From contig NGBS01000590.1 in NCBI GenBank assembly GCA_002245135.1, forward strand, positions 124,001-188,000: a stretch of DNA of 64,000 nt, written 5' to 3'. Positions 27,159-62,684 of this stretch are shown here, one piece after another. The position numbers and the translations under genes were made by a program. Below the pieces are notes generated by a model, which did not search any database, had not been told where the DNA came from, and worked only from the letters and a program-made list of their open reading frames with translations. Source of the stretch: Proteromonas lacertae. Its lineage: Eukaryota. Every line of letters begins with the position of its first letter. Positions within the stretch are counted from its first letter, which is position 1.

Positions 27159-27194
<36 letters not shown>

Positions 27195-31782: not shown

Positions 31783-32816
<1,034 letters not shown>

Positions 32817-32928: not shown

Positions 32929-35900
32929 ATGCCAAGATGCAGTTCATGCCAGATTGATCTTCCTCCTTATGAGTTTGATGATAGTGAATTAGCAAAAACA
33001 AATGATAGAATATGTAAAGTCTGTTATAAGCAACAAAGACATTATCCAAGAAATCCAATTCCTGAAGCATGGAACCAGTATAAAAAATCACCAAATCTAA
33101 GACAATCACCAACTACAAGAAAATATCCTCCATATCCATCTCCAGATTCCATTAATCCTTCTCGAGATTATTATCAACCACATCCACCATCTGAATTACC
33201 TTCTCCACCTTCAAACTATCCACCACCACCAGATGCTTCTCCATTACCACAATCAATAAAAAGAGGTTACGACAGAGAACCATATATACCACCTCCTCAA
33301 GAATATGCTCCACCTCCAAAATATTCACCAGCACCTCCTCCAAATGAATCTTATGATAGATATTACGAAAGATATAGAGATCATGATAGAATAGAAAATT
33401 CATCTCCATATTATGATGTTAAATACGCTAAAGAAATGATTCCACCATTATATTACGATATACCTCCACAACCAGCATATCCACTACCAAAACGTCATCA
33501 CCGCCATCACCATCATCATCATCGACATGCCAATGATGATTATCCACCAGGTATTCCACCTCCAGTACCTCTACCTGGTTATGATTATCGATATGATCAA
33601 AGATCAGCATATCCAGAAGATATGTACATGAGAGTAGAAGATCCATCTCATAGATATCCTCCAGATAATGGATATGCACCACCTCCGCCTCCTTCACCAC
33701 CACCTCCTCCACCTCCATCTCATTCATTACCTCCACCACCTTCATCACCTCCTCGACATCATCACCATTCATCATCACCATCATCTAAATATTATCCAAT
33801 GGATAAATCATATCATTCATCTCAATCATCAAGATATCCATCAGGAAGATATGAGCAATCACCATTACCATTATATTCATCATCTAATTATCCACCACCG
33901 TCAGTACCAATGTCTAGATATGGTGATAGCAGTAATAAATATGTAGATAGTAGACATCGAGATAAAAAATCCAGGTCTAGATCCAGATCAACATCTAAAA
34001 GACATAATAATAAAAATAGTCGTTATAATAGTAGTAAAGATAAGAGGAAACATTCTCGTTCTAAATCTTCCTCATCATCGTCTAGTCATTCCAGACGTTC
34101 ATCATCTACTTCATCCTCCTCATCTTCTCGATCTTCCTATTCTTCTAAATCTTCTTCTTCTCGTTCTTCTTCTACATCAACTCATTCTTCAAGTAGAAAT
34201 AGTAGAAAGAATATTAGGAATAGAAAAGGATATGAAAATACTAAACCAAGAGTGAAGAATAAGTTTTATTTTTTAGAAATCTATAAACATAGTATATAAT
34301 AATAATAATAATAATAATAAATACATAAATATATAGAAAATGATGATCCAGAAAGACCTGATTCATTTTCATTAGGAAAATTATTTAAAGTTGAATGTAA
34401 TCAATTTATTGTATATATATTTATTATTATTAATTATTAGTTGGATGTTAGTCATATCATTCCATCAGTTCAACACTATGTAATCAATGTAGAATGTCAG
34501 AAAACAAAGGCAAGAAGAGTATCTGAGAAGTTAAGATATAGTATTTATGACAACATTGTAGAATATATTCGTACATTATATAAAGGGAAAGATGAACCAC
34601 CTGATTTAATATTTGATGGTGTTAGGAATGTTTATACAAAAAAATTATTGCCACTACCAGAAAATATATATGAAACTGATGTATAAATATATTAATTATT
34701 ATACTTCTTTAGATGAAAGTTGATATTGACAAATTGACTAGATTATTCCATGTAAAAATGACTTTATATGCTAAAGATATAGATATGACTGTATTAAAGA
34801 ACAATCCAAAACAAACTGGTGAATTTCCAATCTTTCAATATTCAATACTTGATTCAATATTCTTACATTATAATAGTAAAATGTATATGAGAATTGGAGC
34901 TAAATATTTTGATCCAAGTGATCGATTAAAATTAATTAATAATACTGAAGTTTATAGAGGATTTTCACAAGTAACGCATTTAATTCAAAATGGGAATTCG
35001 GTGAATATAGATAATACTTCGGGTATATTTATTGAAAATATACCCGTTTCAAAATTTATTGAAAGAGTATTGAATGGATATGGTAGAACATTTGATTTGA
35101 AAAGATATGAAGATAAAGAAGGCAATTGTTGTTTAGATTTGAAACAAATTAGACAGCTTAAAGGAGAATTATTATCTTATAAAGTAATCTGTCAAACATC
35201 AAGGATTTAATCGTGAATATAAAATCAATGACATATCTCAATATTCTGCTTGTGAAACGAAGTTTAAAGATAATAAAGGTAATAGCATATATATAATAGA
35301 TTATTTCTTATCTCAATATAATATCAAATTGAAGTATCCTTCACTTCCTTGTTTGATTGTAGGAAATAATAAAGTAGCAATGCCAATGGAATTATGTTTG
35401 ATTAAAGATAGACAAAAGAGGAGAAAGAAAATTTCTGATGCTTTACAAGTTGAAATGGTTCAGAAGACTTCAATTAAACCAAGTGAAAGAAGGAAAGTAA
35501 TAATGAATATATTAAAAGCAAATGAAAAAATGTATTCGAATATTGAAAAGGAGACTGGAATTCATTTAATAAACAAATTTACTGAATGTAATGCGAGAAA
35601 GTTGGATGAACCATTTATTAGATATGCAAATAAAGATTTAGAACCGAATAATGGAGGATGGAATCAAAAAGGAATTGAATTATTAAAACCAGTAAAAATT
35701 GTATAATTATTTATTATTTTCATTTTTAATTTATAGAGAAATTGGGCTGTAATTAATTATGATTATCAATTTGATTGTAAATATTATTTAGATTCATTTA
35801 TTAATGCTGGATTGGATATGGGAATTGATATAACATCTGATTTACCAAAAATATATAAATGTGATATAAGATATATTGATAGTGTTAAAGATAAATTTAA

Positions 35901-36154
35901 AGAGATATTAAGTAATGATCATCATTGTCAACTTGTTGTTGTGTATATTCCTACTAGACAGACGGATGTATATGGATATATAAAAAAAGCAAGTGACTAT
36001 TATTCATCTATACCATCTCAAGTAATGGTGACGAAGAATTTGATAAAAGGTGGAGTGATTTATTTGTCTAATGTTTGGTTGAAGATTAATGCGAAATTAG
36101 GAGGAATAAATTTCACTTCTATTCCACCAGAAGTTAAATTTAAAAATCCATTAG

Positions 36155-36186
<32 letters not shown>

Positions 36187-36979
36187 TAAATTAATATAGA
36201 AGGAAACAGCAACTTGTTTAATGGGAGGAAGTATTTTATATCCTTCACTTGGAGTAAACTGTAAATCAATCGCTTCTGTTGTATGTTCAACAGATTTAGA
36301 AGGTTTAAGAGTAGCTAGTGAATGGAGATGTCAAGATTATAAGTCTGATATTATTCAAGATCTCGATGTGATGTGTTTAAAAATGTTGAAGAATTTTATA
36401 GAGAAAACTGGAGTTATTCCAAAGAGAGTTATCTTTTATAGAAATATTACAAGTGTTTGCCAAAAGCCATTAATCCATGAGGAAGAAATACCAATGGTTT
36501 TACAAGCTATCGATAAAGTATTTAAAAAAGAAAAAGTGAAATTAACTTTCTTATTGGTTTGTAAAAGACATCATGTTAGATTCTTTTGTGATGATAATAA
36601 ATTTACTGATTATAAAGGAAATATAAAAAGTGGAGCTGTGATAGATAATAGTGTATGTAGTAATAGTGGATATGATTGGTATTGTTATTCTCATAGCGGT
36701 TTACAAGGAACGAGTAAACCAACGTTATATGATGTTTTATACGATGAAGTGAAGTGGGATCCAAACGATTTATATTTAACAACCTATTGGCAATGTTTTA
36801 CATTTATTCGAAGTACGAAAGCAGTATCAATTCCTCCAATGGCTTATTATGCCTATTTGACTTCTTTTAGAGCAAGATATTTAACGAAGAGAAATGATGT
36901 GAATGATAATATGGGATATGATACTGATGAAAGAGTAATACTTAATCCTAGAATGTACAACGTAATGTATTACATTTAA
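32929..36979 (+). CDS. Argonaute (AGO clade) paralogue A: N-terminal C4 zinc finger, ~400-aa Pro/Tyr/His/RS-rich extension, slicer-dead PIWI; +1 frameshift at ~35193
   Basis: Five introns splice in frame. PAZ (LKYPSLPCL, MPMELC), MID (YGYIKK, PSQV, LKINAKLGG) and PIWI (KRHHVRFF, GTSKP, VSIPPMAYYA, MYYI) are present; tetrad positions read S/D/N/Y. Confidence 0.9.
36701..36852 (+). repeat. 152-bp tract identical to 40029-40180 (shared between the two Argonaute PIWI exons)
   Basis: Base-by-base comparison from ttacaaggaacgagt to ggcttattatgc shows no mismatch. Confidence 0.92.
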
Positions 36980-37126
36980 CAAATGAAATTGAATTTTCAA
37001 GTAAATAATAACATATTTCAGTTTTTAGAAATTTGTATTTGATCATGTAATTTTCAGTGTAATTGACTTTCTCGAACATTATATTTGTGACATTCTCTAC
37101 AGATAATGTCTTTTGACATTTTGTGT

Positions 37127-37138
37127 AAAAAGCTTGAC
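37127..37138 (+). promoter_or_regulatory. Candidate promoter element AAAAGCTTGAC upstream of Argonaute B
   Basis: The same or a near-identical motif occurs at 3587-3596, 5022-5030, 6838-6849, 47933-47946 and 62730-62741, each a short distance upstream of a start codon. Confidence 0.55.
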
Positions 37139-37163
37139 AGTAGTTTGAATATTTGTTTTATAA

Positions 37164-40100
37164 ATGCCTCGTTGTATTAACTGTCAGAGAGATTTAGCAA
37201 ACGATTGTTTTAGTAATAAACAATTGAAGAATAAAGCTGGACCTAAATGTGTGGATTGTGTCTCTGGTAAGATTCTTCCCAAAAGTGATAAGCCTGCAGA
37301 GCCAGCTCCTCCACCAGAAAAATCTAATCCTCCACAAGCAACTCAACTTCCCTCAAAATCTGCTGTGGAACCTAGTAAACCTAATTATGCTGATAACAAA
37401 GCTGTCCAACAAGCGCCAGCATGGGGAATGAATCAAAAACAAAATAACTATCAGCAGCAGGGGAAATCAGGTAAAAAACCTTATCAACAACCAAATCGAA
37501 ATGGTAATAGAAATATCCACCAAAAACCAGCATGGGGAGCTAATCCAGCTGAGCAGCCGATTGTAGAGCCAGTAACTAAGCCAACTGAACAGCCTCCACC
37601 TCCATCAGCTACATTAACAGATACACTGTCGTTACCAGCAGTAGAAAAAGCTTCAGATGTTAAAGAAGAGAAGAAGGCAGAAAATCCATACAGAGATCTA
37701 GAAATATATACAATTAGTATATTAATTTATTATAATTACATATATATATATATATAGGTGCTACTGATCCAAGAAGACCAAATATTCCAGTAAAATACAC
37801 TTTCAAAGTGTTTGCTAATATGTTTAAGATTGATATAAGTCACATGTGTCAATTTATTAATCATTATGACTTATCCATCACAGTTCCATCTGCAAAAACA
37901 GATGTTAAAGTAAAAGATGAGATAATTGCGCAAGTATGGAAGTTTATTGAAACTCAATTAATTCCAAGTTATAATCTAACTCCAAAACCTTTATTAATAT
38001 TTGATAGTAAAAAGAACATATTAGTAAATCAAATAATTCCATTTCCAAATGATTGTTTTGAAGCAGATGTATATATTATTATTATTATTATTAATTATAT
38101 TTATATATTTAAATTAGATGGATATAAAAATGAACAATAAAACAACAACATATCATATAAAGATTACTTTAGTAGATAGAAACATTGATATGTATCATAT
38201 ATTACAATATCCAGCCAAAATCAAAGACTGTCCATTATTACAATATTCAATATTGGATAATATATTCGCCTATTTCAATTCAAAGTTTTACCTTAAAGTT
38301 GGTGCAAAGTATTTTGATCCGCGTAACAGAACTCCTCTTGGTAAAGGTGCAGAAATATACGATGGATTTCATCAAGGAGTTCGAAGGATTCAAGCTGGTA
38401 ATGCAATTAATGTTGATATAGCAAATACTGCATTTATTGAAGCTTTACCAATACCTCAATTCATTGAGCATTTATTCACAGATAGAAGAGGTGAATTCTC
38501 ACTTAGAAGTTATGAAAATAGACATGGAAAATGTTGTTTAGATAGAAGACAAATTAAGCAATTGAAAGGTGAAATAAGTAATTATTTAGTAATATGTAAA
38601 CATCAAGGATTTGCACATCAATATAGAGTGATGGGAGTAAGTGAAAACTCAGCAGATCAATATGAATTTGAAATAGAAAAAGGTAAAAAAACAACAGTTA
38701 GCCAGTATTTTGTAAATCAATATAACATAAAATTAAGATATCCAACTTTACCCGTATTATTATTAGGAGGTAACAAGATAGCAATGCCAGCAGAGTTATG
38801 TGTGATAAAAGAAAATCAACGAAGAAAAAAGAAGGTATCAGATGAACAACAAGCTACAATGGTTCGAGAAACTGCAAAACGCCCTGCTGATAGAAAGAGA
38901 ATAATAATGGATATTTTAAAGAACAATCAAAATATTTATTCATCACTAAACAAAGAAATGGGAATAAATGTAGATACAAAGTTTATGGAATGCAATGCGA
39001 TGTTATTAGATGAACCAAAGATAAAATATGCAAATCAAATGGTTGATCCAAATAATGGAGGTTGGAATCAGAAAGGTGTAAAATTATTGAAACCAATGGA
39101 TTTAAATAGTTGTGCAGTGATTAACTGTGATTATAGGTTTAATGCCAAAGATGGAATAACGAGATTTTTCGAGATGGGTGAAAGAATGGGAATTAGAGTG
39201 CCAAGAAATACACCACCAATATATAATTATGATAATCGTAATGGATATAATGAAATTTACAATATATTTGATAGAATATTTCAAAAAGGTGAAGTACAAA
39301 TTGTATTTGTTTATATCCCAAGAAGAGAAACAGAGATATATACTCATATAAAGAAAGCTAGTGATTATCATAATAAAATTCCATCTCAAGTAATGGTAAC
39401 TTCAAGTGTTTTAAAAGGAAGAGATCAATATTCATCAAATGTATGGTTAAAAGTAAATGGTAAATTAGGAGGAATCAATTTCACAGCAATGCCTCCAAAA
39501 CCAGCATTAAAGAATCCATTGACTGCAGTTCCAACAATATTATTAGGAGCTGATGTTACTCATCCAAGTCCTGGTACAAATATGAAATCCATTGCTGCTG
39601 TTGTATGTTCTACAGATTTAGAAGGTTTAAGAGTAGCTAGTGAATGGAGATGTCAAGAAAGCAGAGTTGAAATTATTCAGAATTTAGGAGATATTGTTGA
39701 GAAATTCTTAAAGAATTGGATTAAACATAATCCTAATGTTGTACCAAAGAGAATTTTATTTTATAGAGATGGTGTTAGTATTAGCCAAAGACCTATAGTA
39801 CAAGAAGAAGAAATACCTTTAGTATCAATGGCTATTAAAAAAGTGTTTGGTGATAAAAGTGATATTAAATTAACTTTCTTGTTGGTTAGAAAAAGACATC
39901 ACGTTAGATTTTTCAGTGAAGATAAACGATTTGTTGATAGAAATGGAAATATTGTAAGTGGAGCTGTGATAGATAATAGTGTATGTAATCCTGATGGATA
40001 TGATTGGTATTGTTATTCTCATGGAGGATTACAAGGAACGAGTAAACCAACGTTATATGATGTTTTATACGATGAAGTGAAGTGGGATCCAAACGATTTA

Positions 40101-40316
40101 TATTTAACAACCTATTGGCAATGTTTTACATTTATTCGAAGTACGAAAGCAGTATCAATTCCTCCAATGGCTTATTATGCTCATTTAACAGCATTTAGAG
40201 CAAGATACTTGACAAAAGTAGATGATTCCACTTCAGTTGTTTCTGGTGGTAGTGAAGAAACTGATACATCAGTATTAATGGCTCCATCTATGTATAACGT
40301 GATGTATTACATTTAA
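37164..40316 (+). CDS. Argonaute (AGO clade) paralogue B: N-terminal C4 zinc finger, intact DEDH slicer
   Basis: Two introns; GADVTHP, QESRVEII, YRDGVS, YYAHL, LKVNGKLGG, C-terminal MYYI. Confidence 0.95.
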
Positions 40317-40423
40317 GTAATTATTGGTATAAATAAATATATTTCTTTATAAAAGAATTGATGTGAATATAATAATACTCTATTATTACAACATATAATA
40401 ATAATTAAAGCTATGTAATTATT

Positions 40424-42161
40424 TTAGAAATCTACTGTTACATTCACTTCTTTTACTGCACCACTTGTCTCTCTTATTCCTACAACCAATACACCATTTT
40501 CATTAATTGACATAGTAACATCTACTTTAATTTGACCAGCTGGTTTTCTTGGAATATTTGGAATTAAACATTCTCTTAATTTATGATTAGCAGAAGCCTT
40601 CTTATCTTCACCTTCATAAATCACTACATTAATTGATTCTTGATTATCTGACACTGTGAAATATCTTTCAGTATTTGTAGCTGGAATTGGTTTATTTGCT
40701 TCTAATATAACAGACATTTTATCACCTAAAACAGCAATTCCAAGAGAATGAGAAATAACATCATGAATAATAATTTTACCTCCTCTATTGTTTGAAATTG
40801 GCACTTTAAAACCATTATTACTACCATCAACAACAACTTTAGAGCCTTTTGTACCACCAGTTGCTGATTTTACTACGACTTTTGCACCACTACTCTTTGG
40901 AATAACACCTTCTGGTGGTTCAATATTGTTAGCTCTAGCAACAAAATTACCTGTTTTTGTATCAATTATCACTTTAGCTCCATTTGGATATGTCTTTTCT
41001 TCACATCCTCTCACTAAATCTTCTGCTAATAATGCAGCTCCAATAGCTACAGCTTCATCTGGATTGATATCTTTGTTCAAAGTCCTACCAGCAAAACATC
41101 CTGATAACATTTCTTGAACCTTAGGAATTCTGCTACTTCCTCCAATTAATACAACATCTTGAATACTTTCTTTTGACAATCCACTATCTCTTAATGTCTT
41201 TTCTACTAACTCAATTGTTCTATCAAATATTTTTTGATTTAATCGATTGAATAAAGGTCTAGTTAAGGTTGTATCAATATCATTATCTTCTAAAATATCA
41301 ACCTCTATATCTGTTTCATTCATTTCACTTAGTAAACATTTTGCTTCATCACATGCTTTTCTTAATTTGTATAACTTCTTTGGGTCTTTCATTATGTTTA
41401 TTCCAGCATCACTTTGTAATTTTTCTGCATAATAATTCACTAAATTTGAGTTGATATCTTCACCTCCTAAATGAGTATCACCTCCTGTTGCTTTTACTGT
41501 GATCTCATTATTCTTTACTTCGATTATACTGACATCAAAAGTACCACCACCAAAATCATACACTAAAATAGTTGAATTAGATTTCTCTTTTACATACTTA
41601 TAACCATAGGCAATAGCAGCGGCTGTTGGTTCATTTATAACTCTCAATACATTCAATCCTGCTAATTCACCAGCTTGAATTGTTGCTCTTCTTTGATCAT
41701 CACTGAAATAAGCTGGAACTGTAATAACAGCATTCTTTGTATCTGCAGCTGCTTTACCTGTTGATTCAACTGCTGAATTAGCTAATTCTCCAAGAACATA
41801 TCTTGATATTTCGTAGGGAGCGAAATCTTTATCTGCTCCATTTACTTTTACTCTAATTTTTGGATTATTATTAGTCATTAATTACTTTAAAGTTCCAATG
41901 TTTTATATCTTCCTGAACAGCAGGTTCATTAAACTTATGACCTATTAATCGCTTAGCATCAAAAACTGTTGAATCAAGATGAGTAGCAATATCATTTCTA
42001 GCCAGTTCACCTACTATGATTTCACTTCCTTTGAATTGAACGTAAGATGGAATAGTTCGCTTACCAGTTCTGCTTTGCACTACAGTGGTTTTTCCATCAA
42101 CTGCATAAGCCAAGCATGAGTTTGTAGTACCTAAATCTATTCCAAAAGTGAATAAAGGCAT
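40424..42161 (-). CDS. Atypical Hsp70: NBD + expanded linker + SBD-beta, no helical lid or EEVD; intronless; +1 frameshift at ~41874
   Basis: GIDLGTTNSC, TVPAYF, INEPTAAA, DFGGGTFDVS, GGSSRIPKVQ, NPDEAVAIGAA, TVSDNQ; ends at EVNVTVDF*. Confidence 0.9.
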
Positions 42162-42292
42162 TTTTAGATTTTAGGGAACTTTTTTGGTTGTATTAAAATG
42201 TATTTACAGTAGAATAAGATGAACTGAACTAACTAATTATTTGAGATAAAGTTATTTATCCAATACACACACACAGAATATCAAGTAGAAAA

Positions 42293-45200
42293 TTATGTTC
42301 TTCTCATATTTAGAACCATTAACGCATTTTCAGCTGCTTTTATCTCTGCATTGCTTTTGAATTTACTTATAGCACAGCCAACACATTCTTCATTTACTTT
42401 CACAGTTATTTTCGACTTTTCACCTAAATCTTCTTTTTCAAATACTGCAGGAGGTAAATTATTTGCAGATAGATAATGCTATTCATAATTATAAAACATA
42501 TAATTATACAGATAACTCAGTAACAGGATGTTTCGGTATATTCAGAGGTGAAATATTCTTCAGCAATTGTTCATATATTCTATTAACTACTTTTTGTGCA
42601 GTGAATAAAATTAAGGTAAATAATATAAATATAAACATTCATTAAAAAACAAAAGGATATCTATAATAACCTCCATCTATTAAAACTGCTCCAATTAATG
42701 ATTCAAATATATCAGCAAGTACTTTTGGAGTATCAACACCAGTTCCCCATTTACTGTGATCATATTTTCTACTTGGTTTTTTAGATGGACATAATGGTGA
42801 TATTTCAAGAAATTCATAGCCATTGCCATAATTAATATTGCCATCTATTAATTCACTGACAAAATCTCTTATATTATCATCCACTATACTTTTTGAGTTT
42901 CTTATAAATTGATTTATTCCTAATGATGCTGATATATAAGCTAATGTTTCGTTGTTGGTTAAATAACTCTTAATTTCTATACAAATAATAATAATAATAA
43001 ATAAATATTCATACCTGTCAATTGTTGTATAGTTAAATCAGTATACTGCATTGTCCATCCATTCGAGAATAATGTAATCTAAAAATGAATCTCCTATAAA
43101 TTCTAGTGTTTCATAATTACTAGATTCATATGTTATAACAGATTTCAAAGTAAAAGCTCTTTTTAATAATTCTGTATTTATAAATGAGTATTGGATTATA
43201 TTCTCTACATCACGCACCCATTTCTCTTTATTCTTTATATTAATATTATAAACAAAGATTCCACTATCCATATTGTTGTATAAACACTTCTTTATCATAT
43301 CAAGTAATGGTTGTTGGTTAGAATGCATCATAATTTCATTAAAACAATTAAAAGCACTGGTAAGTCCATCTATTATTATTATTATTATTAAATTATAAAT
43401 TTATACAATTCAAATCAATGAAATAAATAATTGCAAATAATGCTGATTTTAGTGAGGATTCTGGAATTTCTGTTTCTTCCTTACAATTTGTAAACATTGG
43501 AATCCATGACTTTGGCATATTTGCAGATCTAATAACTCTAAATAATTATTAATAATGATAATATATATACTCATATAGTCTCAAATATTCTGCAGTTTCT
43601 TTAATATGCTTCTTAGTAAACATCTTATTCCTCTCTGATGATAAAAATGATGCTGTTTCTGATGAGTATTGATAATAAAGTAATAAACTAAGCAAAAACC
43701 TATATAAACATTCATAAAATAATGAATATACTTTGTTAGAATATTTCCTAAGCTAGAATACTTCTCATAATTGTAATCTTCATTATAAGAATAAGGAGTT
43801 AAACAATTAACTATCATATTAACATCATCTACACCATATGCTGTTCCAGCATTTAATAATTTCTTTTTCAATTGAGAAAACCTTGTTGCATATTCATATT
43901 CATAAGCCACTGATGGTAAGAAAGGCATAAGTTTCATTTCATCACAACTTCCACAGCAAACAGTACAAAATTCAGGTAAGAAATAGTAATAATCATTTGA
44001 ATATGTATAATTATTAATCAATAACACACATTTTACTGCAGTTTGATCATCTCTACAAGCAAAACCATATTTACTAAAATATAACTCTCTAAAGGATGTT
44101 TGACAAAGACTATCTTTTATATAATCTGGACTAATATCAGTTATTTCAACTACTTTATATAAATTCTCTGAAGAAGAATCTGTAAAATCAAGTGATTCAT
44201 GAGATATAATCCAATCTTTACAATCTTCTTCTCTTTTGATATGAAACAGTAATTTATCCTCATATTTTCTTTCAACTACTGGTAATAACACTTTAACTTG
44301 AAATGCAATAAATGGATTTTTAAATAAACCCATTTCATAGAACAAAATGTTTCTATCTCCATTTAATTTACATAAATAATATTGTTTACCAACTGAGCAA
44401 TCATAACTGTTAGTAGTACAATTGTAACAACCCAAAATATTCAGAGTATATGACTTTAAAGACGAAATATCATCATTATCCAATTCTATTGATTTATAGT
44501 ATGACCATTTTCCATTATATTGTTGATTGCTATTGACAAATGTAAAATTATAATTAATATTTTCTTTAGATTGACATATAATTCCATAACAATATTTACA
44601 TACATTTGCATTATCAGCAGAAGTACAAGTTAGTGTGTATAAATGATATGTAGAAGATGAGTTCAACTTAAAATATGAAGAATCTATTTCATATTTTACA
44701 ATTTTTGCTTCTCTCGTCATTATACTCTTCTATTTTAATAGTAAATTTATATATATACTGATTCTTTTGGTTGAATATCTGATATTACAACTACATTTGA
44801 CTGACTTTTAAACGGATATAGAAAAGGAGTTACGATTCTCTTTTCATACATTTCGATACAGAATTTGTAATAGATATTTATCAAAGCATATTTCTTTGAT
44901 ATTGACTAATAGAATAATATAACAAATAATATATTTTATATATACTACATCACTCTCAATTTCATTAATTGGAGAATTACTACTAAATATTGCTTTGATT
45001 CTACAATGTTCATTATCTATTATTCTCTTATATTGTAATTCTGGCTTTCTATTCATATATATATAATGATAAATATTATACTCAATTCTTAAAAACGAAA
45101 GTAATCTATAAAATAAATATTGGCAATTAAAAGATGTGATAGTTTCACCAGTTTCTCTAATAACATAACTTAATAATTGCTTATCATCAATATAAGTTGT

Positions 45201-47828
45201 ATAATTCGTTGATTTATAACCACTCTTATCATTCTTGTCTATAAACACATAATATTGATTATTATAACCACTGCTAATCTCTTTCTCTGTTTTTATATCA
45301 TTTATAGGTATATTAATATCATCCAATCGTATTACAACATCATAAACTGAAAAAATAATGTCTTTATATAATTCTTTTGTAGATATTAATATATTATAAT
45401 TATCCTATATAAAATAATAATAATACCTTAATAAAAATACATTTTCAAATTGATTTACATACAACTGCTGATTGATTTTACCAATTACTATCACTTTATT
45501 AATATTATTATCAGCAAATACTGACCAAAGTATGTTTGCATATATATTTTGTTTAACGAATATGATTATTTTAATCTTACAATTATCTTCAAGCAGTTTG
45601 TATATTAATTTCAATAATTTGTTTAATTTATCACTATAACTTTCATATCTTGATTTAGACAATATCATATTCAATTCTGCTGGTACACTTATTACATTAC
45701 TGTTTTTAAGATCATTTATGTAATTAACACATGGAGTTATTCCAAATGTGATTAAAATATCTTCAACTTCTTCATATACTCTATTTCTCTTTTTTAGTCT
45801 ATCTAAACAATCTTTCATTTGATTTATTTCTAATGATTCATCTTCTTCATAAGTAATAATATCTTCCATAACCATATTTTTATTTATTATATCTTTTATT
45901 TCTTCATCATCATTTGGTAATACTTCGTATTTACTTTCCTATTTTATAATATGAATTTATATAATATCATACTATTCGTATTGGTGGAGATGTTGGAGTT
46001 GGTGATGGAGTTGGTGTTTCACTTGGAATAGTTGGAAGTATTACATTTGATAGAATTTTTGTACATTTTATACATATTTCAGTAATAGTTGACATATATG
46101 TGTTTAACTTTTGACAATTATTCAATTCATCATCGTCGTAAAACACTACATCTCCATATTTAATGAAGGTAAAATCATTATTCCCTTTAGGTTTATTAAC
46201 GAAATTATTATAAAGGTATTCTAAAACTTTATTAAATGTATTGATCATTATTTCTTTCCATAAATCAAAATAATTAACTATCTTTATAGTAATATCCTAA
46301 TAGAAATAAATAAATAAAAACTATACATCTTTAGCAGTATCTTCTGATAAACAAAATTCAGATTGGAATGAGTAATTATTATACTGACATTCTATTCTGA
46401 AAACACTATATGTACTAACTATGGATGGAGAATTGAATATTAATTCAGGTTGTTTCTTATTATAATTATTACAATATAAAGTAAATAAATAATATAAATA
46501 ACACTTGTCAATTTCACTTGAATTTGGTGGGTCTGTTAAATTAATAGATTGAAAGGGATTTGTTGATGAAGTTATAAATGTAGATGTAGAGGAAGAGAGT
46601 GTAGATTCAATTAAATTACTATTGGATGTAGATGCAATTGTAGATTTAGGCATAGATTTTATTGAATATGAGTCTTGAGATTGAATAAGTGAAGTAGAAG
46701 GTTGTTGTTGAAATGATTGAGTTGGTAGAATGTTAAATGGTGGAGATTGATATGATGGAGGTTGTTGTTGTTGTTGTTGAAATTGTTGTTGTTGGAATGA
46801 TGGAGGTTGACATTGTTGAGATGTTTGATATTGATATTGATTATATTGTTGCTGTTGATATGGATTTTTATTTTTCAACTCTTTATAATAGTTATAAACA
46901 TCTTCAGCAACTTTCTAACAATAAATAAATAAATATATAATAATAATAATACTTGATTAGCTGCGTTTTTTGACCTTAAACTACGAGTAAATAATTTTCC
47001 ACACCAAGTGCATGTTGCTGTAAATGAGCCATTATCTTCTAATATCCTATCATTATTATGTAAATAACAAAATATACATTATATTTGGCAAATCATAACC
47101 ACTTTCTTGTATTTCTTTAAACATAGATTCTTTATTCAAAGGAGTGGAAGAATGAAATATTTTATTTGGTATTATTGGTTCAGTTGATGTAACATATTGC
47201 ATGTAAGGATTAACAGGAGCTGATTTAGTCATTGGGTCTAAAGGAGTAAAAGATTTTGGAGAATCAAAAGTTGGTACTGTTTTATTCATTATGCAAGAAG
47301 GATTAGAAGGTTTGACAGGAGTTTGATTCGGGATTTGATTTAATTGTTGAATTCCCGATTTAGGATATCTTGTGTTTTCTGGCGAATCTAAAAAAAGTAA
47401 TGCCTTTTGCGCTACTGCTTTTTCAGCTTCTTTTTTACTATTATATTCTTTATCTGTCTTAAATGTTCGATCAAAACATTCCACTGTACATTGAAAGTAA
47501 CTATTGCCTTTTTTGTTGGTTGGATCAGGAACAGGTATGTGCTTAAATTAATTAAAGATTTAAATAATTGTATGAAAAATTAAAAAGGATATTTATAATT
47601 AAGTTTGGAATTCATTTTATTTTTCTGTAAATACTGACTTAGCATTGATTTATAATCTTTTAGCTGTGTGTCTTTCGGTATATTTGCTTGTACTGGAAGA
47701 GTTTGTATATTAACATTGTTTTGGACAACCGGCTTAATAGGATCGCTAAATTCATTTAAATTATTAAACTGCTGAGTATAAAAATACTACTACATAAAAG
47801 AATATAAACATACACTTTGCATATCCAT
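42293..47828 (-). CDS. Dicer-like protein: 3 N-terminal dsRBDs, degenerate Hel2i/Hel2, DUF283, platform/PAZ, inactive RNase IIIa, active RNase IIIb, C-terminal dsRBD; +1 frameshift at ~43053
   Basis: About 15 introns traced from ATG 47828 to TAA 42293-42295. PAZ/connector SFRELYFSKYG...FLPEFC...FLPSV; RNase IIIb NYETLEFIGDSFLD and PKVLADIFESLIGAVLID; final HPVTEL...SNAEIKAAENAL. Confidence 0.88.
42601..42660 (-). other. U12-type AT-AC intron (60 nt) in Dicer, at the end of RNase IIIb
   Basis: Donor ATATCCTTTT, branch TACCTTAAT 9 nt before a terminal AC; removal gives AG|T and IDGGYYSAQKVVNRIY, skipping two in-frame stops. Confidence 0.9.
47543..47592 (-). other. U12-type intron (AT donor, ambiguous acceptor) inside Dicer dsRBD1
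   Basis: Donor ATATCCTTTTT, branch-like TCTTTAAT. As assembled, the frame requires an AA end at 47543 (or AT at 47537); AG or AC ends would need one more A before the donor. Confidence 0.75.
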
Positions 47829-48102
47829 TAGCTATAAATTTAAATTAAACGAAGGGTAACTATTAATATGTATATTATTCGGAAGTAGAAAAATATATGT
47901 ATAAGTAGAAAAAATGTATAATTAAAATCAATAAAAAAAGCTTGACTTCAATGTGAATGTCAAAGTCCATTTTACATATTTCTACTCAACCAATCAATAT
48001 TATTATGATTTGTTATATTTAATGTTATAAAAAAATAAAAAGTTAATAAAAATGATCATTTTTATTTAACAATATGTTCTACATTAAGATTTCTCAATGG
48101 AC

Positions 48103-51100
48103 TTACGATATTCCAACATACGTGTTATATTGTGAAGTAATAGCATCTTCTAAAATTTTTGAAAACTGCTCAGGATCATCTGATCTGTGATTGTATATAT
48201 GAGGATATAATTTTACCAATTTTTCAGATGTTTGTAATAAAGACACATCTTTACATACTTTATTCTCTAAAGCAATGAAATGAATATCAGCTTTCAATTT
48301 CTTTATATTTTCAAAACAATCATACCAATCTACAATCCATTCAGTATCTTTTTCTCTATCTCTTGGATAATAATCAGTATTAGGAACTTTTGAATCGCCA
48401 TGACCTGCTGCATCTCCACAAATAATAATGCAATGTTTATAATTCTTATATTCACCTAACAAATTCTCTACTGCATAGTTTACACCTCCATATACATCTT
48501 CACATATATCACCACCTCCTTTTTCCTTTACTGTTGACAAATAATTCTTTATTTTTTCGAAATCGCTTGTTATTCCAGAAGTGATTATTCTTTCTTCACC
48601 TGCATCAAAATCTCTATAACCAACAAATTGACCAACAATTTTTGAATTTGGATTGACTTTTGAATCTTGTTTTATCCTCACTATTTCATTGAATATATCG
48701 ATTAAATGCTGTGTTGTTTGTTTTATATATTCTTGCATTGAAACTGTACAATCTAATATTATTGTAAGACAGAAATTGATTGGCAAAAATTGTTTTCTAA
48801 TTTCTACATTTGGATCAGGTTTTATATTATTAATATTTATATTAAATTCATGTTGAAGTGTTTTTGGCATTTCACCACCTGCATTTCCAGCAAATGAAAA
48901 GAATGCATCAATATTTAATAGCCAAATCATCGAATTAGATATCCATCTACTAGCATCAGGTGTGAATTCTTGGAATAGTTTTGAAGCAGCTGTGTCAATT
49001 ACAGTTTTACCTTCACCTTCTTTACTTTCTCTCAACATAATAGCAGCATGATCATCATGTTCTCTAGCAAACACCACAAAACCTTTATCTATTAAATCAT
49101 TCTCATTTAAACAAGCTAAAGTATTTCCTTCTTTTATTATATCTAAGCCTGTATCAATTCTTAAACTAGACATATTATAATCCATTAAATTTTGACCAAT
49201 TGTCTGAAACATTCCTCTGTCAGCTTTTAATCCTCTTCTCATTTCTGATCCACCTGATACTTCAGTTTCTTCATCCACTATATCAATATTATAATATTTT
49301 TTAAAGTATTCTACTGCTTCATAATTGAAAGGAGGATTCTCTAACATCCAAAATATACCACCTCCATTCTCCTGATATTCATTTAAACATTCTAAAAATG
49401 AAGTTAAATATTTAATATCACTGTTTGGATTTTCTTCAGGGAATCTACCAGTTCCATCACTACAAGTAATAAGAATAGATCTGTATTTACCTGTTGTTAT
49501 TTCTCTTACAGCACTATAATAATCATATACAATTTCTACATTAAATCCTTTTGTTTGTAATTTCTTCTTTGGACTATTTTTACCATCACATCCAATTGTT
49601 AAAGTCTGAACTGTTATATTCTCATCGATTATTCTTCCTTCTCCATCTTTTTCATTTCTACACAAATACAAAATCACAAACAAGATGTTAAAATCTTTGA
49701 ACGATCCATCAACGCCTAAATCATATTCAGAATTAGTTAAATCAGCATCAATTGATGAAAATGAAGGATCATTTGAATGATGAGCATGTAAAAATTGTGC
49801 TCTAAATTCATAAGCTGATGGTATATTTGTTATAGATTTTACCATTTCACGATCTATTATTGAAACAGCTTCAAATTCATTTACATTTTGAGGTGTTAAA
49901 AATGGATATTTTGGTAATGTATATGATGATAAATTTGCTGCTGTTGGATTATTGATAGATGCAATAGCTTTATCCAAATTATCAGGATTATAAGACCAAA
50001 TAAAATGAGGGAAGATATTCTCTATTCCATACACTGTATAACCAACACCTATTCCTACTGTTGCACAATCAATACTCTTTATTATACTCTTTATCGATTT
50101 TCTAGTTGTTTCATTAGTAATACCATTTGTTAATATGAATATTAATGATGTATAAGGTCTTGCTGAACATGTAGCAATTGCATATTTTATTGTATCACTT
50201 AAAACTGTTTGTTGAACTAAGTTATTCTGACAATTCTCAATTACTGTATTTATAGAACTTGCAACATTAGATCCCCAAGCATCTGTTGATGTTAATCCTG
50301 TTCCTATTCTATTTATTTTATCTGTAGCTATCCAAATATCAATAGCTGGAACATTCACTTCACATATACCTCTTAATAATGTAAAGAATGTTTTTATTGT
50401 GTGAGATATGTTAATTGGACTAAATGTCACTTCTGAAGCATCTAATACAATTGAAACACTGTAAGATCTTACTTTATTCCCTGTTTTCTTTTTAAACAGT
50501 TTCCCATCAGTACTAATTCCTGCAATATACTTCATATAATTTTGAAAATGAATAGTAGTACCAGTTGCACTAGCTACCCAAGAAGTTGGTTTATTTGGTA
50601 TTACTAATGTTGAGTTTAATGGATAAAATAATATATTACTTTTTATCTTTTCATTTAAGAATTTCTCTAATGAACCATTGCCTATACCATTTACTATTTG
50701 ATCCAATTCTTTGTCTGCTATTTGAGGCAAACTTTTGGAGTTAATATTCTCATGACTTTCGTCTGAAATAACCAATATTTCACTTTCCTGTAATGGAGGA
50801 AATGAAAATTCAAATCTATTTGACTGAGATGGTTTTACATTTACAATCTCATCAGAATTTATATTTTCTACTTTATCTAATTTAGAATAGAATAATGGAT
50901 AAATGGAATTCATTAATATTGAATTTAATAAATCAGAAAGTTTACTTATTGATTGGTAATGCTTTGATGTAAAATTTGTATCTAATATATTCTTCATTAA
51001 TTGTGTATTTTCAGTTGATAATATTTCATCTTCTTTATCTTCAGAAAACACTCTAATAATGAACAGATATGGAATATATTTTCTAATATCATCCAATGTA

Positions 51101-57100: not shown

Positions 57101-60100
57101 TCTTCATCAATATTTATATCATTTGATGTAGAAAGTATTTTTTTGCCAATATACAACAACTCCCATATTTGATAAGCAATATCATTTTGGTATAAACAAA
57201 TAGATAATAGATGTGAAGAAAGAGTTGTTCTATTACCAGTCATTGAAGATGGATTTAAAGTACAAACAACATTAACGTTTTGAGGTAATATTATATCACC
57301 ATAACCAGGAGCAGTAAATATTTGATGATTAATACAGCATTTAATAAAATATAAAATCACATCAAGAACATCTGGAGTAGCCAAGTTAAGTTCATCAAAC
57401 AAAAAACCTATTGTTTCTATTCCTTTCTCTTTTTGTACTATAATGTAATCAGTTATTTTACCTGCTTTAGTATATTGTTGTTGATCTTTATCAATATCAA
57501 CACTACCAAATAATTCTTGAATAGTAACATTAGGTGAGAAATTCAAAGCTAAATATGGGATTTGTTTAGCTTCATACACATATCTTGCACATATTGATTT
57601 ACCCACTCCTGGATCACCTTCAAGAATAACTGGAATATTTGACTTAATACCAATTAATAGTGTAACTAACATTTGAACTGTAGTTTGAACTAAATAAAAT
57701 GTTTCACTAATATTATTCTCTAAATGTCTTCTTACAACATTCAAATCATCAACAAACTCTTTAGAAAAGGTATCTTCAGCATAATCTAATGTATGAATGT
57801 TAATTTCATTACTCATATATACCATTCTCTTCAAATTAGGAGTAATTGTTGATATTCTATTAGAAATCAACAAATCAGTTTTATCATGATGATTTCTGGA
57901 AATATAATCAATATAAAACAGAGAATCTAGAGGAGATAAGAAACAATTACTTACTTTTTCATTTAAATCATATATTGTGATAGGACAATCATAAGATGGA
58001 TCATAGTAAGAGTAATTATGTTTGATTTCTTCTGGTGATAGATTTGGTCTACAGAGGATACTTAAAAAGAGATTCTTATTCATAACTCTTGAATAATCCT
58101 CTTGTTCCACTGATGCTATAAAATGAGGTAAAACAGTATGAAGATGATACAACAACGAAAAATAACTGCCTATAGTATCTTCATATAATGAATATTGTTT
58201 CAGTTGAACAATGTTTTGATATAAATTCATTAAACCAGTCATTCTTGGCAATACAGAATCACTTAGTAAATCAATATGATTGATCAACAAATCTTGTCCA
58301 GTTACAAATGGTGAAGTAATCAAACCAGGCTTGAAAAATATATAAGAAGCTTTATCATCACTGTCATTCACATTAGTCAATATGGATTTTCTCCATTCTG
58401 TAAAATTGGAATATGAAACTTTTGGTTTTAACTGATCTACCATTGTCCGTAATTCCATTCCATTTGAAATCATTGTATTACCCATCAAATAACTACCATC
58501 ATAAGATCTTGATAATTCTACTGATTTACTATTTGGATATACGTTTTCTAAAAACGATTGCTTAAATGGATTTGATCCAATAAAGAGGATCGGAATGTTT
58601 TCATTTGCTTGATTAACTAATGAAAATCTAAATAAACTTTCTAGAAACCATCTATTTGGTGATTCTGGTATTTCTATTGAATCGTCATACTTTACTTCTA
58701 AATCAACCTTTTTACATCTCTTAGTTTTTCTATCGATAACAATAGGAGCTTCATAAAAATCTTTCAACTGTGGTGCTATATCTTTATACAAATCTAATAA
58801 TCTATCTAAATCAGTTTCTGTTGAAACAAACATACTTAATATATACACCATCAAATACTTATTATCTTTAATACGACCTTTATAATTATGGCATATTTTA
58901 CTTAAGTATTTTAATTGAGTCAGTGAGAATATATTTTCATGGAGTAAAGAAATTCTATACATATCTGAAGTAATCTCTTGTTTTTCTTCATCAGTAAAGT
59001 TTGGTATTTTAATAACTGGACAATATGGAGGAAGTTTAACAGGAGGTTTTCTCCCATTCACAGTTGTAAATAGAAACACAATTCTAAAATTTGAATGAAT
59101 TTGATAAGTAGTATTCATATATATGAATTCTTTTGCTGTTGGATCAATTATTGTTTCTAATAACTGGAAAACATCACTAGATAAATCAGAAGCAGATTCA
59201 ATTACTAAAATACCTCCATTTCTTAATGAATCAAGTAAAATACATGGATAAAAATCAAATGTACCAGATTCATTGCCACCAGAATTTGCTTTCTTTGTGA
59301 AAAACCCTAACAATTGATCAACTTCTGTCTCTGGTGATATATACAACACTTGATAATCTAAATTAGTAGTTGATGAATCAAAAATTTCACTTATCAATGT
59401 TGTTTTTCCAGATTCTTTATCACCTACTAAAGCAACTGATCTATTTGTCACTACATTATAAAACACAAATTGGTTCAACTTTTTTCTTATTCTAATATTT
59501 TCAAATGCTGTGAAATCTGTATTATCTTTATCTTTTGAATAATTAAGTAACTCATTTTCAAACATTTTTTCATTCTCTGCAAATTTGTTCGAGAAATTCT
59601 GAATAGTTTCAATTAGTTTATCTTCTCTTATTTCATAAGAATTCTTGATCTTTTCTTCAGGTAATTTAATGTGTATAAATCTATTAATTAAAGCAGGAGA
59701 GAATTTTTCGAGTCCTTCATTTGATACAGTTGCAATAACTCTAAAATCTTCATGAACTCTCACTTCTGGTTCTTCTATTCTTTCATCAAATCTAACAGTT
59801 TCTTGATAGTCTTTATTTGGAACAATTTCAAGAAGAGAATTAAGTCTTTCAATGAAATTAGATTTCATATTATCTAATGATTGTAAAACACATATTTTTC
59901 CATTAACAATACTATCAACCAATGGAGAATCAATCCACTTAGGAGTTACAACTGTTTTATTTCCATTATTATCACTTGGATTTTTACTTACATCTTGATT
60001 ATTAATATTGCTATTATTGTTATTCATTCCATCTTCATCATCTACATCAGCTTGATGATAATTTTCATTTTCTTCTTTTTCTTTGTTAGATCCTATTTGA

Positions 60101-62684
60101 AACATTCCAATAAGTGTATCTGTTGAAGTACCGCTTGTACATTTAATTACATTCATACTACTTTCATCTCCTCCTTTCTCTTTCAATATTTCTTTGATTA
60201 ACATATTCACATATTTTCTTGATATAAACTCATTCTCTGAAGATATCAATACATGATATCTTGATTCAAATGCAGATCTTACATAATCAACAAATCTTCT
60301 CCATATAAATGGATCAAGAGGATATAAAGAATCTTTTGGCATATCATCACTTGCTTCAATGCTTGGTCTTAATCTGTCTCCATAAACAATTTTAATTGCT
60401 TCATTCAATGAACCGATATGTTTAACCAAAGAAGACACTCTTATACAATCTCTTAATGTATAAACCATATCAGGATTATCATTAATGGCTTGTTGATGAG
60501 CAACTATTACTTTATCAATATCCTTATTTCTCTCTATCTTTTTTAATCCATTTAGAATATATCTCAATTCAGAAGTAGAAATTTCTGGAAAATGATTACT
60601 ATCAATACATCTAAATCTTGATAACATAGTGCCATCTAATTTTGTTCTTTTATAAACAGAACCAGCAGGATTCTGAGTTGCGATGATTCTGAAGTTAGGA
60701 TTCATTTCATATTTTGTATAACCAACTCCTAATTCATCAATGTATAATTCATGAGTATCTAATACACTTAAAATAGCTTGAACAACCTCTTTACTGGCTA
60801 AAGATAATTCATCTAAAAGTAATACTTTTCCTTCAATAAATGCATCAGAAAATGGACCTTTTTGAAACACTGGTTTAGGATGATTATTTTCTTTTTTAAT
60901 CACTATATTACCAATCAATTCATCAATTACTGAAGAAGGACTAAAATTATATCGAATTAAAGGCATTTGACCATTCATACACACTTGTTCAACTGTGAAT
61001 GTTTTAGCACTTGATGTCTTACCTTCAATTAATAATGGAATTCTATTAATAATACCATCTTCTATTATTTTCATCCTTTTCATTGCATTTTCAGTTATTA
61101 CAGCAGTTGCTTTACTTCTTTTAGTGTTGATTATATGATATATTTCATATTCACATGCTTCACCATTTACTGTTACTTTTTGTTGGTTATTTTGAGTATG
61201 AAAAATCAGAATTGGATCTTCACATTTAACATTAATATTACCAAATTGAAATGTCTTATTTTTTGCATTTTTTATTCTACAAAAGTATATAATCTTTGGA
61301 GAAACATTATAAGATTCATCTTTCTCAAGAAATGGTAATATAAACTTCTTATTACCTTCATCACTGTTAATGGTTGAAGATTTTGATAATTCAAATGCAA
61401 ATTTATAATTCTCTACTAGATCATTCAAACCCCAAACTAATGTTGATGAAACAGAAATAAATCTATCTTCCTTTCCATCTTTACTGTCTTTTGGAGTAGT
61501 TAACCATAATTGATTTGTAACATACTTTGAAAAACTTTCTGTGTGAATTCTACTATCTTTTATATCTTGTACAACTACTGAAAATGATTGGAAAGGTATG
61601 ATGGTAATAGATGATGATGAAAATTGATTTAATAAACTCATATTATCTGCTGTGTTTAAATTAACAACAGGAGCTGATGGTGGTACAATATATTGTAGAT
61701 TTGGATTGATATATTGAGGAGTAAGAGTAGGAAATGGTTGTTGATTTGGAGGAGTAAGAGTAGGAAATGGTTGAGGATTGGACTGTGGTAAAGGTGGATT
61801 GAAACTATTTATTGATCCATTTATTGGAATAAAAGGAGGGTTTAATGGTTGAGATGATGGATTTGGTATATAAAATGGGGGTGGATTATTACTCAATGGC
61901 TGAGATTGTGGATGTGACATTGGTAAAGGAGGTGGAATAATAGAAACTCCACTTGCATTAAACACTGGCGGTGTAAATACTGGAATACTTCCTGAAGTAT
62001 TTGTTAAATGACTTGGTAATTTTATATTAATTGGTTTATATTTGGGTGATGGTGATGGTGATAGTGATGTAGATTGTTGTTGTAAAAATGGTGGAGGTGA
62101 TGATGATGATGGAGATATAGATTGTTGTAGAAATGGTAGTTGTTGTTGTGAAGCAGTAGTAGAGTTATTCTTCTGATCCATACCACTTCCTAAATTCTTT
62201 GCTGCAGCAATAAACTTATTTACATATACAGTTGGAGCAACACCAGGATTTGGAGTAATAACTGGATTTTGTGGTTGCATTAGTTCAGATTGTAGAAACG
62301 GTAGAGACATTTGTCCAGAAGATGAAAAATTATCAGAAGAATGTGTTTCTATTACTGGAGGAGTGAATGATAGTGAATTTAAAAGAACTGGAGGATGATT
62401 TAATGCAGGAACTACTGGAACAGGTAAGTGACTAGATATTCTACTAACAACTAGATTAACTTCTGAGGAATTAGTAAAACATGTAATTTTTGAACAATCA
62501 TTTGGAATGGTTCGACCATCATCTAAAGCAACTTTTAAACATGCTGTTGATATATTCAAGCGTCCCTATTAACTGTAAGATAAAATAATACTTCTAGCAA
62601 GTCATAAACTGCTTGACATGATATATTATCATCAGCAGTTTGTATTTTATAATTTGAATTCTCAAAAATATAAGACACAATCAT
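48103..62684 (-). CDS. Giant (~4850 aa) midasin-like protein: N-terminal ubiquitin-like domain, Pro-rich linker, six AAA modules, two degenerate vWA-like domains, an unassigned alpha/beta domain and a C-terminal MIDAS vWA
   Basis: ATG 62684, one 26-nt intron (62566-62591), then a 14.4-kb exon. Walker A-like GKTSSAKT, GDKESGKT, GDPGVGKS, GPSPSGKS; LLLDELSLA, FDELNLA, ERLNSL, FRIIATQNP; C-terminal ILDCTVSM...YRDF...GGGDICEDV...CGDAAGHG. Confidence 0.85.

Follow-up and report, generated by a model that had tools for sequence, protein, structure and literature searches.

The physical linkage of Dicer and Argonaute genes has been described in Chlamydomonas reinhardtii, where DCL1 and AGO1 are adjacent and divergently transcribed, an arrangement that is conserved in two related species and for which a defence role was proposed (PMC10226591). 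A related linkage was found in the 64,000-nucleotide stretch of contig NGBS01000590.1 that was analyzed here (the window), in which five consecutive genes between positions 32929 and 62684 encode two Argonautes (AgoA and AgoB), an Hsp70 that lacks the lid, a Dicer-like protein and a giant protein with AAA modules and von Willebrand factor type A (vWA) domains. Both cases involve Dicer and Argonaute genes that are physically linked in a unicellular eukaryote, whereas in the window two Argonautes converge on the Dicer-like gene and the Hsp70 gene lies between them, so that the genes are neither adjacent nor divergent as in Chlamydomonas. The earlier note on this DNA proposed an operon-like, self-contained silencing module of five genes and knew of no described equivalent, but for the Argonaute-Dicer linkage the three Chlamydomonas species provide one. 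We read the locus, with a probability of roughly 0.5, as a linked Dicer-Argonaute cluster that would act in defence, made up of a slicer/non-slicer pair and a Dicer-like protein with one active site, in which the Hsp70 and the giant are likely members of large, scattered families and not dedicated partners.

The gene models, built from the window coordinates, place AgoA (32929-36979, 1286 amino acids) and AgoB (37164-40316, 1020 amino acids) on the forward strand and Hsp70 (42161-40424, 578 amino acids), the Dicer-like gene (47828-42293, 1646 amino acids, 16 introns) and the giant AAA-vWA gene (62684-48103, 4851 amino acids, with one 26-nt intron at 62566-62591) on the reverse strand. Pfam searches supported the models of AgoA (on its exons), AgoB and Hsp70, together with alignment for AgoA and Hsp70 and PDB matches for AgoB; the proteins of AgoA, Hsp70 and the Dicer-like gene each contain an X at one frame break. 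The five genes are separated by spacers of 184, 107, 131 and 274 bp, counted from stop or start codon to stop or start codon, which agrees with the consecutive order and short spacing claimed earlier. The term ‘operon-like’ is not supported, because the genes form two convergent blocks and the spacers to the flanking genes are as short as the internal ones (112 bp between Dim1 and AgoA, 106 bp between the start of the giant and an EF-hand gene). The stop codons of AgoB and the Dicer-like gene lie about 2 kb apart. A total of 24 introns were modelled, with lengths of 26-60 nt, of which 22 start with GTAT and two with ATATCCTT. The GC content at third codon positions is 0.14-0.17 in the five genes and 0.12-0.21 in seven neighbours, and the intron style is alike; a recently inserted foreign island was therefore rejected.

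Both Argonautes belong to the AGO clade and show the L1-PAZ-L2-MID-PIWI architecture in Pfam. AgoB, which has two introns, matches the Piwi (1e-77) and PAZ (2e-22) families, and its best PDB matches are human AGO1 and AGO2 (1e-98 to 1e-96); it is closer to AGO than to PIWI proteins (best AGO match 3e-98 versus best PIWI match 5e-33). The alignment shows an intact D-E-D-H catalytic tetrad in AgoB, whereas the corresponding columns of AgoA read S-D-N-Y and all four catalytic residues are gone. AgoA, with five introns (GTAT..AG), consists of an N-terminal C4 zinc finger, a region of about 420 amino acids rich in Pro, Tyr, His, Ser and Arg, and then N-L1-PAZ-L2-MID-PIWI. The motif C-x2-C-x21/22-C-x2-C opens both proteins (32929-33027 in AgoA, 37164..37280 in AgoB, both on the forward strand), so that the zinc-finger Argonautes described earlier, one slicer and one dead, are borne out. 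Human AGO1 and AGO2 (PDB: 4kre, 4ola) and the oomycete-like protein P0001 share with the window proteins the domain order, the DEDH tetrad of AgoB and the occurrence of tandem slicer/non-slicer paralogues, but identity reaches at most 35% in matches covering most of the query, both window Argonautes carry the Stc1-like finger and the dead AgoA has its long low-complexity arm. The homologue search returned 136 matches among 6,414 candidates, and no locus related to AgoB was found in viral or metagenome contigs.

In fission yeast, Stc1 connects Ago1 to the H3K9 methyltransferase complex. The AgoB finger resembles S. pombe Stc1 (Pfam PF12898) in the pattern C-x2-C ... F-S-x2-Q-L ... C-x2-C, but it is a single finger fused to an Argonaute and its score (E 8.6e-4, 20.3 bits) falls under the Pfam cut-off of 24.8. 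The leads to Stc1 in the ESM Atlas were weak (0.84-0.89, all below 0.9), and the AgoA finger had no Stc1 match in Pfam. Literature searches at the level of titles and listings found no Stc1-Argonaute fusion.

AgoA and AgoB are sister sequences in the tree, with a local support of 100, and the pair derives from an old tandem duplication. They are 52% identical over 838 columns, with a nonsynonymous divergence (dN) of 0.41 and a synonymous divergence (dS) of 0.84. Sixteen of the 90 near-invariant columns kept in AgoB are altered in AgoA, chiefly around the catalytic motifs, and the guide-binding residues of MID are retained. Because the losses cluster at the catalytic motifs while these MID residues are kept, a selected non-slicer fits the AgoA sequence better than uniform decay. 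A tract of 152 bp at the PIWI C-terminus is identical between the two genes (AgoA 36701..36852, AgoB 40029..40180, forward strand) and is likely to be the product of recent gene conversion. A second near-identical tract (36263-36336 versus 39585-39658, 74 nt, 95%) adjoins the first catalytic motif, which stayed different between AgoA and AgoB.

Canonical Dicers produce duplexes of 21-25 nt from double-stranded RNA and contain a tandem of two RNase III domains, both with intact sites, followed by a double-stranded RNA-binding domain (dsRBD). Their partners include TRBP, Loquacious and R2D2, and in animals three-dsRBD partners dock on the helicase insertion region HEL2i (PMC10328071). The Dicer-like gene has a matching predicted order, with three N-terminal dsRBD-like repeats next to the putative helicase insertion region, a putative, degenerate C-terminal half of a helicase, putative DUF283-like and platform/PAZ-like regions and the tandem of RNase IIIa and IIIb before a final dsRBD (Pfam 4e-4 to 1e-3). 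RNase IIIb was identified by Pfam (8e-11), has DCL1 as its best PDB match and keeps both acidic motifs once the frame break is read through. RNase IIIa was recognised solely by alignment to IIIb and contains no acidic residue at either motif, so it is predicted to be dead and one of the two sites is intact. The dsRBD-like repeats lie in the same chain as the rest of the protein, unlike in canonical Dicers, and Pfam confirms only the first of the three (1e-5). The single active site described earlier was confirmed. The PAZ, DUF283 and helicase parts were assigned by position and motif, with the HEL2-like motifs identified by eye, and a single-sequence fold of the platform/PAZ exon reached a predicted local distance difference test score (pLDDT) of 36. 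HEL1 is absent from the gene model, which together with the lack of catalytic acids in IIIa and two U12-type introns sets the gene apart from canonical Dicers. One of these introns (47543..47592, reverse strand) lies within the first dsRBD and has a ATATCCTTT donor and AT..AA ends, which are the commonest non-canonical ends of minor introns (PMC10639083). The other, an AT..AC intron with a CCTTAA branch-like motif (42601..42660, reverse strand), directly follows RNase IIIb. Both of the clear U12-type introns among those modelled sit in this gene.

By analogy with the animal partners, it is plausible that the N-terminal fusion is a built-in partner, because the partners dock on HEL2i and the fusion occurs at the matching position. 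The three repeats would then replace a separate TRBP/Loquacious-type partner and hold the double-stranded RNA. In Dicer, either strand is cut by its own RNase III domain, and a dead IIIa would leave two possibilities: the Dicer-like protein may nick a single strand at a constant distance from the end, or cleavage of both strands may occur only when two molecules join into a IIIb-IIIb dimer. Single-domain Dicers are described as working as dimers (PMC4521922). The guide would pass to AgoB, which would remove or slice the passenger strand and the targets. AgoA retains the guide-binding residues and could be an effector that does not cut, with its long low-complexity arm and Stc1-like finger attracting partners, perhaps with chromatin as the destination.

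The Hsp70 gene is intronless and matches Pfam HSP70 at 2e-114. The ATPase motifs and the beta substrate-binding domain that are common to canonical cytosolic Hsp70s are intact in the alignment, and an insert of about 75 amino acids precedes the linker. Unlike in these Hsp70s, the stop codon comes directly after the final beta strand of the substrate-binding domain, and both the lid and the EEVD tail are missing, in agreement with the lid-less Hsp70 reported earlier. The Hop-Hsp90 loading route uses the EEVD tail, so its absence counts in favour of a cluster in which the Hsp70 is not a dedicated partner. In the tree the protein is placed with eukaryotic Hsp70s (97 in the Shimodaira-Hasegawa-like approximate likelihood ratio test, SH-aLRT). 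A relative of this Hsp70 (P0314) is 52% identical and has the same insert with degenerate ATPase motifs; it ends at the insert, where it was possibly cut by the contig. According to Table S5 of PMC12129017, the Proteromonas Hsp70 family has 238 members, of which 102 contain the peptide-binding domain and 12 the C-terminal domain; subtraction (102 minus 12) gives about 90 lid-less members, a figure that split gene models could inflate. The same table gives 51-76 members in human Blastocystis strains and 9-15 in tortoise strains. A lid-less Hsp70 is ordinary in the opalinatan/Blastocystis lineage, because the 238-member Proteromonas family contains so many of them. Arrays of GW/WG repeats were looked for, with none found in the Hsp70 and two isolated motifs in the giant.

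Midasin/Rea1 (PDB: 5jcs, 6or5) is the closest described protein in layout to the giant, as both have six MoxR-type AAA modules in a chain of about 4,900 amino acids and C-terminal vWA sequence. The giant consists of a possible ubiquitin-like domain, a Pro-rich linker, the six AAA modules, a long middle region and a C-terminal series of vWA, vWA, a glutamine amidotransferase (GATase)-fold domain and vWA. A Walker A motif occurs in modules 1, 3, 5 and 6, with module 5 being fully canonical, and the degenerate modules 2 and 4 were recognised by alignment. The N-terminal ubiquitin-like pattern was seen by eye; the part of it in exon 2 had no Pfam match, and phmmer found no match among the proteins analyzed. 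Out of the ubiquitin-like, six-AAA and vWA architecture predicted earlier, the AAA modules and the vWA assignment were therefore recovered and the ubiquitin-like domain stays a pattern seen by eye, whereas the C-terminus holds three vWA-like domains and a GATase-fold domain and not a single vWA. A RING/RZ E3 module of the RNF213 type had no match in Pfam, and no RNF213 chain was present among the 10 PDB matches listed.

The C-terminal 1,200 residues of the giant, used as a search query, gave 713 matches (E up to 0.001). The named relatives, for which 20 proteins were looked up (19 from the search and P0314), come from Blastocystis, Tritrichomonas musculus, Kipferlia, Dysnectes and Aduncisulcus, and the closest are Blastocystis proteins. 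One Blastocystis strain has four giant paralogues on four contigs, and one paralogue (P0141) aligns to the giant from end to end (27% over 4,906 columns). Judged by these alignments, the giant belongs to a family of midasin paralogues and is not itself a midasin, because the Blastocystis family matches end to end whereas midasins align only in the AAA region, with patchy local similarity. The three vWA-like domains with the GATase-fold domain, the several degenerate AAA modules and the multiple copies are further differences from midasin.

The GATase-fold domain (class I glutamine amidotransferase fold; 48898..49758, reverse strand, residues 4301-4587) was identified from several lines of evidence. 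Its alignment contains 13 invariant columns over 15 sequences, its predicted model (pLDDT 67.6) gave Foldseek E values of 1e-6 to 3e-5, and comparison with the ThuA-like structure 1t0b gave a Z score of 15.0 and a root-mean-square deviation of 3.5 over 209 aligned residues. A reverse tblastn search with a bacterial copy returned the window domain at 2e-5. The Atlas leads were DUF4960 and MJECL34, at 0.95 with fewer than 170 shared features. No family naming this domain or the proteins of the operon in locus L012 was found at useful scores in PADLOC or NCBIfam, and the domain alignment had no match in viral contigs.

A total of 21 bacterial-type loci (18 from metagenomes and three from genomes) match the giant only at residues 4301-4587. 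An Hsp70 occurs within the fetched stretch in twelve of them, representing about nine independent groups, and five of the nine loci without an Hsp70 are shorter than 3.2 kb. The GATase-fold domain is fused behind an Hsp70 in five of the open reading frames (ORFs) read (L012, L014, L015, L025 and L027), and in four of these fusions it follows the ATPase domain and a beta-type substrate-binding domain without a lid. The sister genes in these operons are Hsp70-vWA fusions, with GrpE and DO-GTPase genes alongside, and the order in L021 is Hsp70, vWA, vWA, GATase-fold. Up to three Hsp70s occur in each of the operons (L012:315-14309, L025:608-14568, L015, L027, L014 and L021), where one operon Hsp70 bears the unnamed GATase-fold domain and another a vWA in place of the lid. 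In bacteria, Hsp70, vWA and the GATase-fold domain thus belong together as a unit, one that has no RNAi context. These operons represent the HSP70/GrpE theme, which belongs to the GAP1-N2 GTPase-centred conflict systems (Kaur et al. 2020, PMC7159879 section 29); the main text of that paper does not contain the term ‘glutamine amidotransferase’, and its section 29 does not mention the GATase-fold domain. The GAP1-N2 systems and the window share the GATase-fold domain, vWA domains and a lid-less Hsp70 as a common domain set, but the window lacks the GTPase, GAP1, FNIII and GrpE genes and its Hsp70 is of eukaryotic origin. When the operon components were compared with the window by tblastn, the GATase-fold domain was the only one to match, and only with the L021 copy; the GTPase, GAP1, FNIII and GrpE components of L012 had no match. 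Descent of the window Hsp70 from the bacterial operons was rejected, as a joint clade with the operon Hsp70s failed the approximately unbiased test (p-AU 0.028).

Conservation of the gene order was examined by a metagenome scan with the giant-family alignment, which yielded 27 loci, nine of them of Blastocystis type and 39-47% identical to P0140. The 3′ side of the giant was visible in these nine loci, and tblastn found no Argonaute, Dicer or Hsp70 neighbour in any of them. Pfam identified the neighbours from 30 downstream ORFs (29 of the 68 listed and one from L002): an anion exchanger and a citrate-type transporter in L001, glutaminyl-tRNA synthetase in L002 and L008, and an XPG nuclease and a mitochondrial carrier in L006. 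Published counts of AAA_5 proteins stand at 19 for Proteromonas, 11-17 for tortoise Blastocystis and 1-3 for human Blastocystis (PMC12129017 Table S5), and across Blastocystis these do not rise together with the Hsp70 counts (11-17 against 9-15 in tortoise strains, 1-3 against 51-76 in human strains). The earlier note had itself named large, randomly scattered Hsp70 and AAA families as evidence against its proposal, and this was found in part, with the 238-member Hsp70 family and the four giant paralogues on four contigs. The proposal of a dedicated chaperone and remodeller is weakened by the expanded Hsp70s, the multi-copy giant and the absence of RNAi or Hsp70 neighbours at the nine giant loci.

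The chance of such neighbours was estimated post hoc by random placement, with the published domain counts as a proxy and 25,000 genes. An RNase III gene would fall within two genes of a Piwi locus with a probability of about 0.006, or 0.6% per genome, which supports the physical linkage of the Argonaute pair and the Dicer-like gene. Some rare neighbour is to be expected at any locus, and a strong prior existed for the Argonaute-Dicer link alone. The proxy genome of Proteromonas contains two RNA-dependent RNA polymerase (RdRP), six Piwi and eight RNase III proteins (PMC12129017) and no RdRP was found in the 64-kb window, so that the word ‘self-contained’ is doubtful. In Table S5 of the same source, the human Blastocystis strains each have a single Piwi, a single PAZ and a single RNase III protein and lack an RdRP of the eukaryotic type.

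Three of the genes carry frame breaks. AgoA, Hsp70 and the Dicer-like gene have one single-base insertion each and otherwise no in-frame stop; the extra base in AgoA was located at the start of the PAZ region by comparison with AgoB (35192..35195, forward strand), and the other breaks lie near 41873 in Hsp70 and near 43051 in the Dicer-like gene. All three fall within 7.9 kb, and the 14.5-kb exon of the giant has none. Assembly errors are more likely than decay, since an unrelated gene in the window (15434-17479, reverse strand) contains three one-base shifts, in A-rich runs, which is the pattern expected of residual long-read error. This gene has no Pfam match and its end looks Ig-repeat-like by eye. 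The Hsp70 and Dicer breaks are at or near stops, which raised the possibility of programmed +1 frameshifting at stop codons; this was rejected, as the break in AgoA precedes its stop by about four codons and the shift there is fixed by homology.

Several observations weigh against a core of Argonautes and Dicer with bystander neighbours. The Hsp70 sits between AgoB and the Dicer-like gene and not at the edge of the cluster, and under random placement the probability of finding one among the four nearest genes is about 0.014 for a lid-less Hsp70 and 0.038 for any Hsp70, while that of an AAA_5 gene is about 0.003. The neighbour test covers the 3′ flank of the giants, the side on which the Dicer-like gene lies in the window, and its readable neighbours come from three independent places, with about 1 kb or less of downstream sequence at five of the nine loci. 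The family counts are published values for Proteromonas and Blastocystis, used as a proxy and not counted in the analyzed genome. The dN/dS ratio of about 0.5 for AgoA and AgoB is a modest sign of constraint, there was no close Argonaute homologue among the candidates searched and no close Dicer orthologue was found, and the PAZ, DUF283 and helicase exons gave no Pfam or PDB match in single-exon searches.

Among the alternatives, we would rank highest, although still as unlikely, the presence of two interleaved modules, in which an RNAi core is mixed with a separate protein-level defence module that mirrors the bacterial GTPase-centred conflict operons. The lid-less Hsp70 would hold foreign or damaged protein and the ring of the giant would pull on it via its vWA, with neither loading Argonaute. 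The twelve Hsp70-containing loci, the five Hsp70-GATase-fold ORFs, the Hsp70-vWA sister genes, the L021 order and the GrpE and DO-GTPase genes of the GAP1-N2 theme all speak for such a pairing, but the window Hsp70 is eukaryotic (97 SH-aLRT) and outside the operon clade, and therefore any partnership between it and the giant would be convergent. There is also no Hsp70 beside the giant in the nine Blastocystis-type loci, the family sizes do not co-vary, the Dicer-like gene separates the two genes and the accompanying GrpE, GTPase, FNIII and GAP1-like genes of L012 are unmatched in the window. Behind this we place a decaying copy, in which AgoA, Hsp70 and the Dicer-like gene are young pseudogenes, leaving AgoB and the giant as the sole live genes. 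Three of five genes broken within 7.9 kb beside the giant's unbroken exon, the lost catalysis of AgoA and RNase IIIa and the degenerate helicase would fit this improbable history, yet each broken gene has one single-base insertion and no in-frame stop, the splice signals, the ATPase motifs of Hsp70 and the residues of RNase IIIb have been preserved, the AgoA losses are centred on the catalytic site, and gene 15434-17479 shows similar shifts.

Argonaute loading driven by Hsp70/Hsp90 and remodelling of the midasin type are well known from other organisms, which lends some appeal to the five-gene silencing machine of the earlier note, in which all five genes are inherited together, the Hsp70 holds Argonaute open while a duplex is loaded and the RNA-induced silencing complex (RISC) is stripped or recycled by the AAA-vWA ring. 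The adjacency is real, each neighbour is individually improbable by random placement and all five proteins are atypical. We nevertheless regard this machine as more doubtful than either of the preceding alternatives, given the convergent orientation with ordinary spacers, the large Hsp70 and multi-copy giant families, the lack of an RNAi gene 3′ of the giants in relatives and of GW/WG arrays, and a GATase-fold domain that leads to a bacterial Hsp70/vWA context and not to RNA. Equally doubtful is a two-layer immune island, in which a newly built RNAi core would be co-inherited with the lid-less Hsp70 and the midasin-like ring, the vWA-GATase-fold tail would derive from bacterial conflict operons and a chaperone-gated switch would be wired to silencing. 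Chance juxtaposition of everything except the tandem Argonaute duplication, the Dicer-like gene included, in a gene-dense genome comes last in our ranking. The locus was chosen post hoc in the course of a very extensive scan, eight RNase III and six Piwi proteins occur in the proxy genome and the window otherwise holds unrelated genes, but the linkage has a probability of about 0.6% per genome with the proxy counts and an independent Argonaute-Dicer adjacency is conserved in Chlamydomonas species.

No description of the five-gene arrangement, of RNAi genes of the Blastocystis lineage or of the giant family was found in literature searches at the level of listings, and word searches of PMC3129679 and PMC10690189 gave no relevant term. 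RNA silencing in this lineage appears unstudied, and the linked Dicer-Argonaute cluster supplies a parts list for it. A one-site Dicer with a fused partner and slicer/non-slicer Argonautes makes a testable prediction on guide biogenesis, either nick-and-slice or dimer. The giant marks a multi-copy midasin-paralogue family in anaerobic protists, independently of RNAi, and the tie of its GATase-fold domain to bacterial Hsp70/vWA conflict operons suggests a role in defence or protein remodelling for the numerous lid-less Hsp70s of these protists. If the five genes did cooperate, they would form the first physically clustered chaperone-plus-remodeller RISC module.

The remainder of the window is a mixture of unrelated genes, and Rfam had no match in it. 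The DNA is AT-rich, with a GC content of 0.22-0.38 per kb, and eukaryotic; for comparison, the GC content of Proteromonas is 27% (PMC12129017 section 5), and minor introns that are short and of the AT-AC type are characteristic of Blastocystis (PMC10639083). The mixture includes cilia-type genes, which are nearly all lost in Blastocystis (PMC12129017), and a TylF gene, a family with 12 members in Proteromonas and none in eight Blastocystis strains (PMC12129017 Table S5), and the DNA probably derives from a flagellated opalinatan stramenopile, a likely relative of Blastocystis. The five genes are flanked by the housekeeping gene Dim1, an rRNA adenine dimethylase (31777..32816, start approximate, forward strand, Pfam RrnaAD), and by the EF-hand protein gene (62791..64000, reverse strand), which continues past the window end. 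Two HYDIN/CFAP65-like genes with Ig-like (ASH) repeats (2-3172, reverse strand; 12722-15190, forward strand) indicate a flagellated organism. The TylF/macrocin O-methyltransferase gene (21537-22442, reverse strand) is intronless and may have been acquired from bacteria. A poly(ADP-ribose) glycohydrolase gene (28284-29776, reverse strand) lies about 3 kb upstream of AgoA. Finally, two paralogous ABC-G/PDR-type transporter genes were found in inverted orientation (8094-11711, reverse strand; 23809-28219, forward strand), one of them nearly intronless, and these are 71-80% alike in the second nucleotide-binding region.

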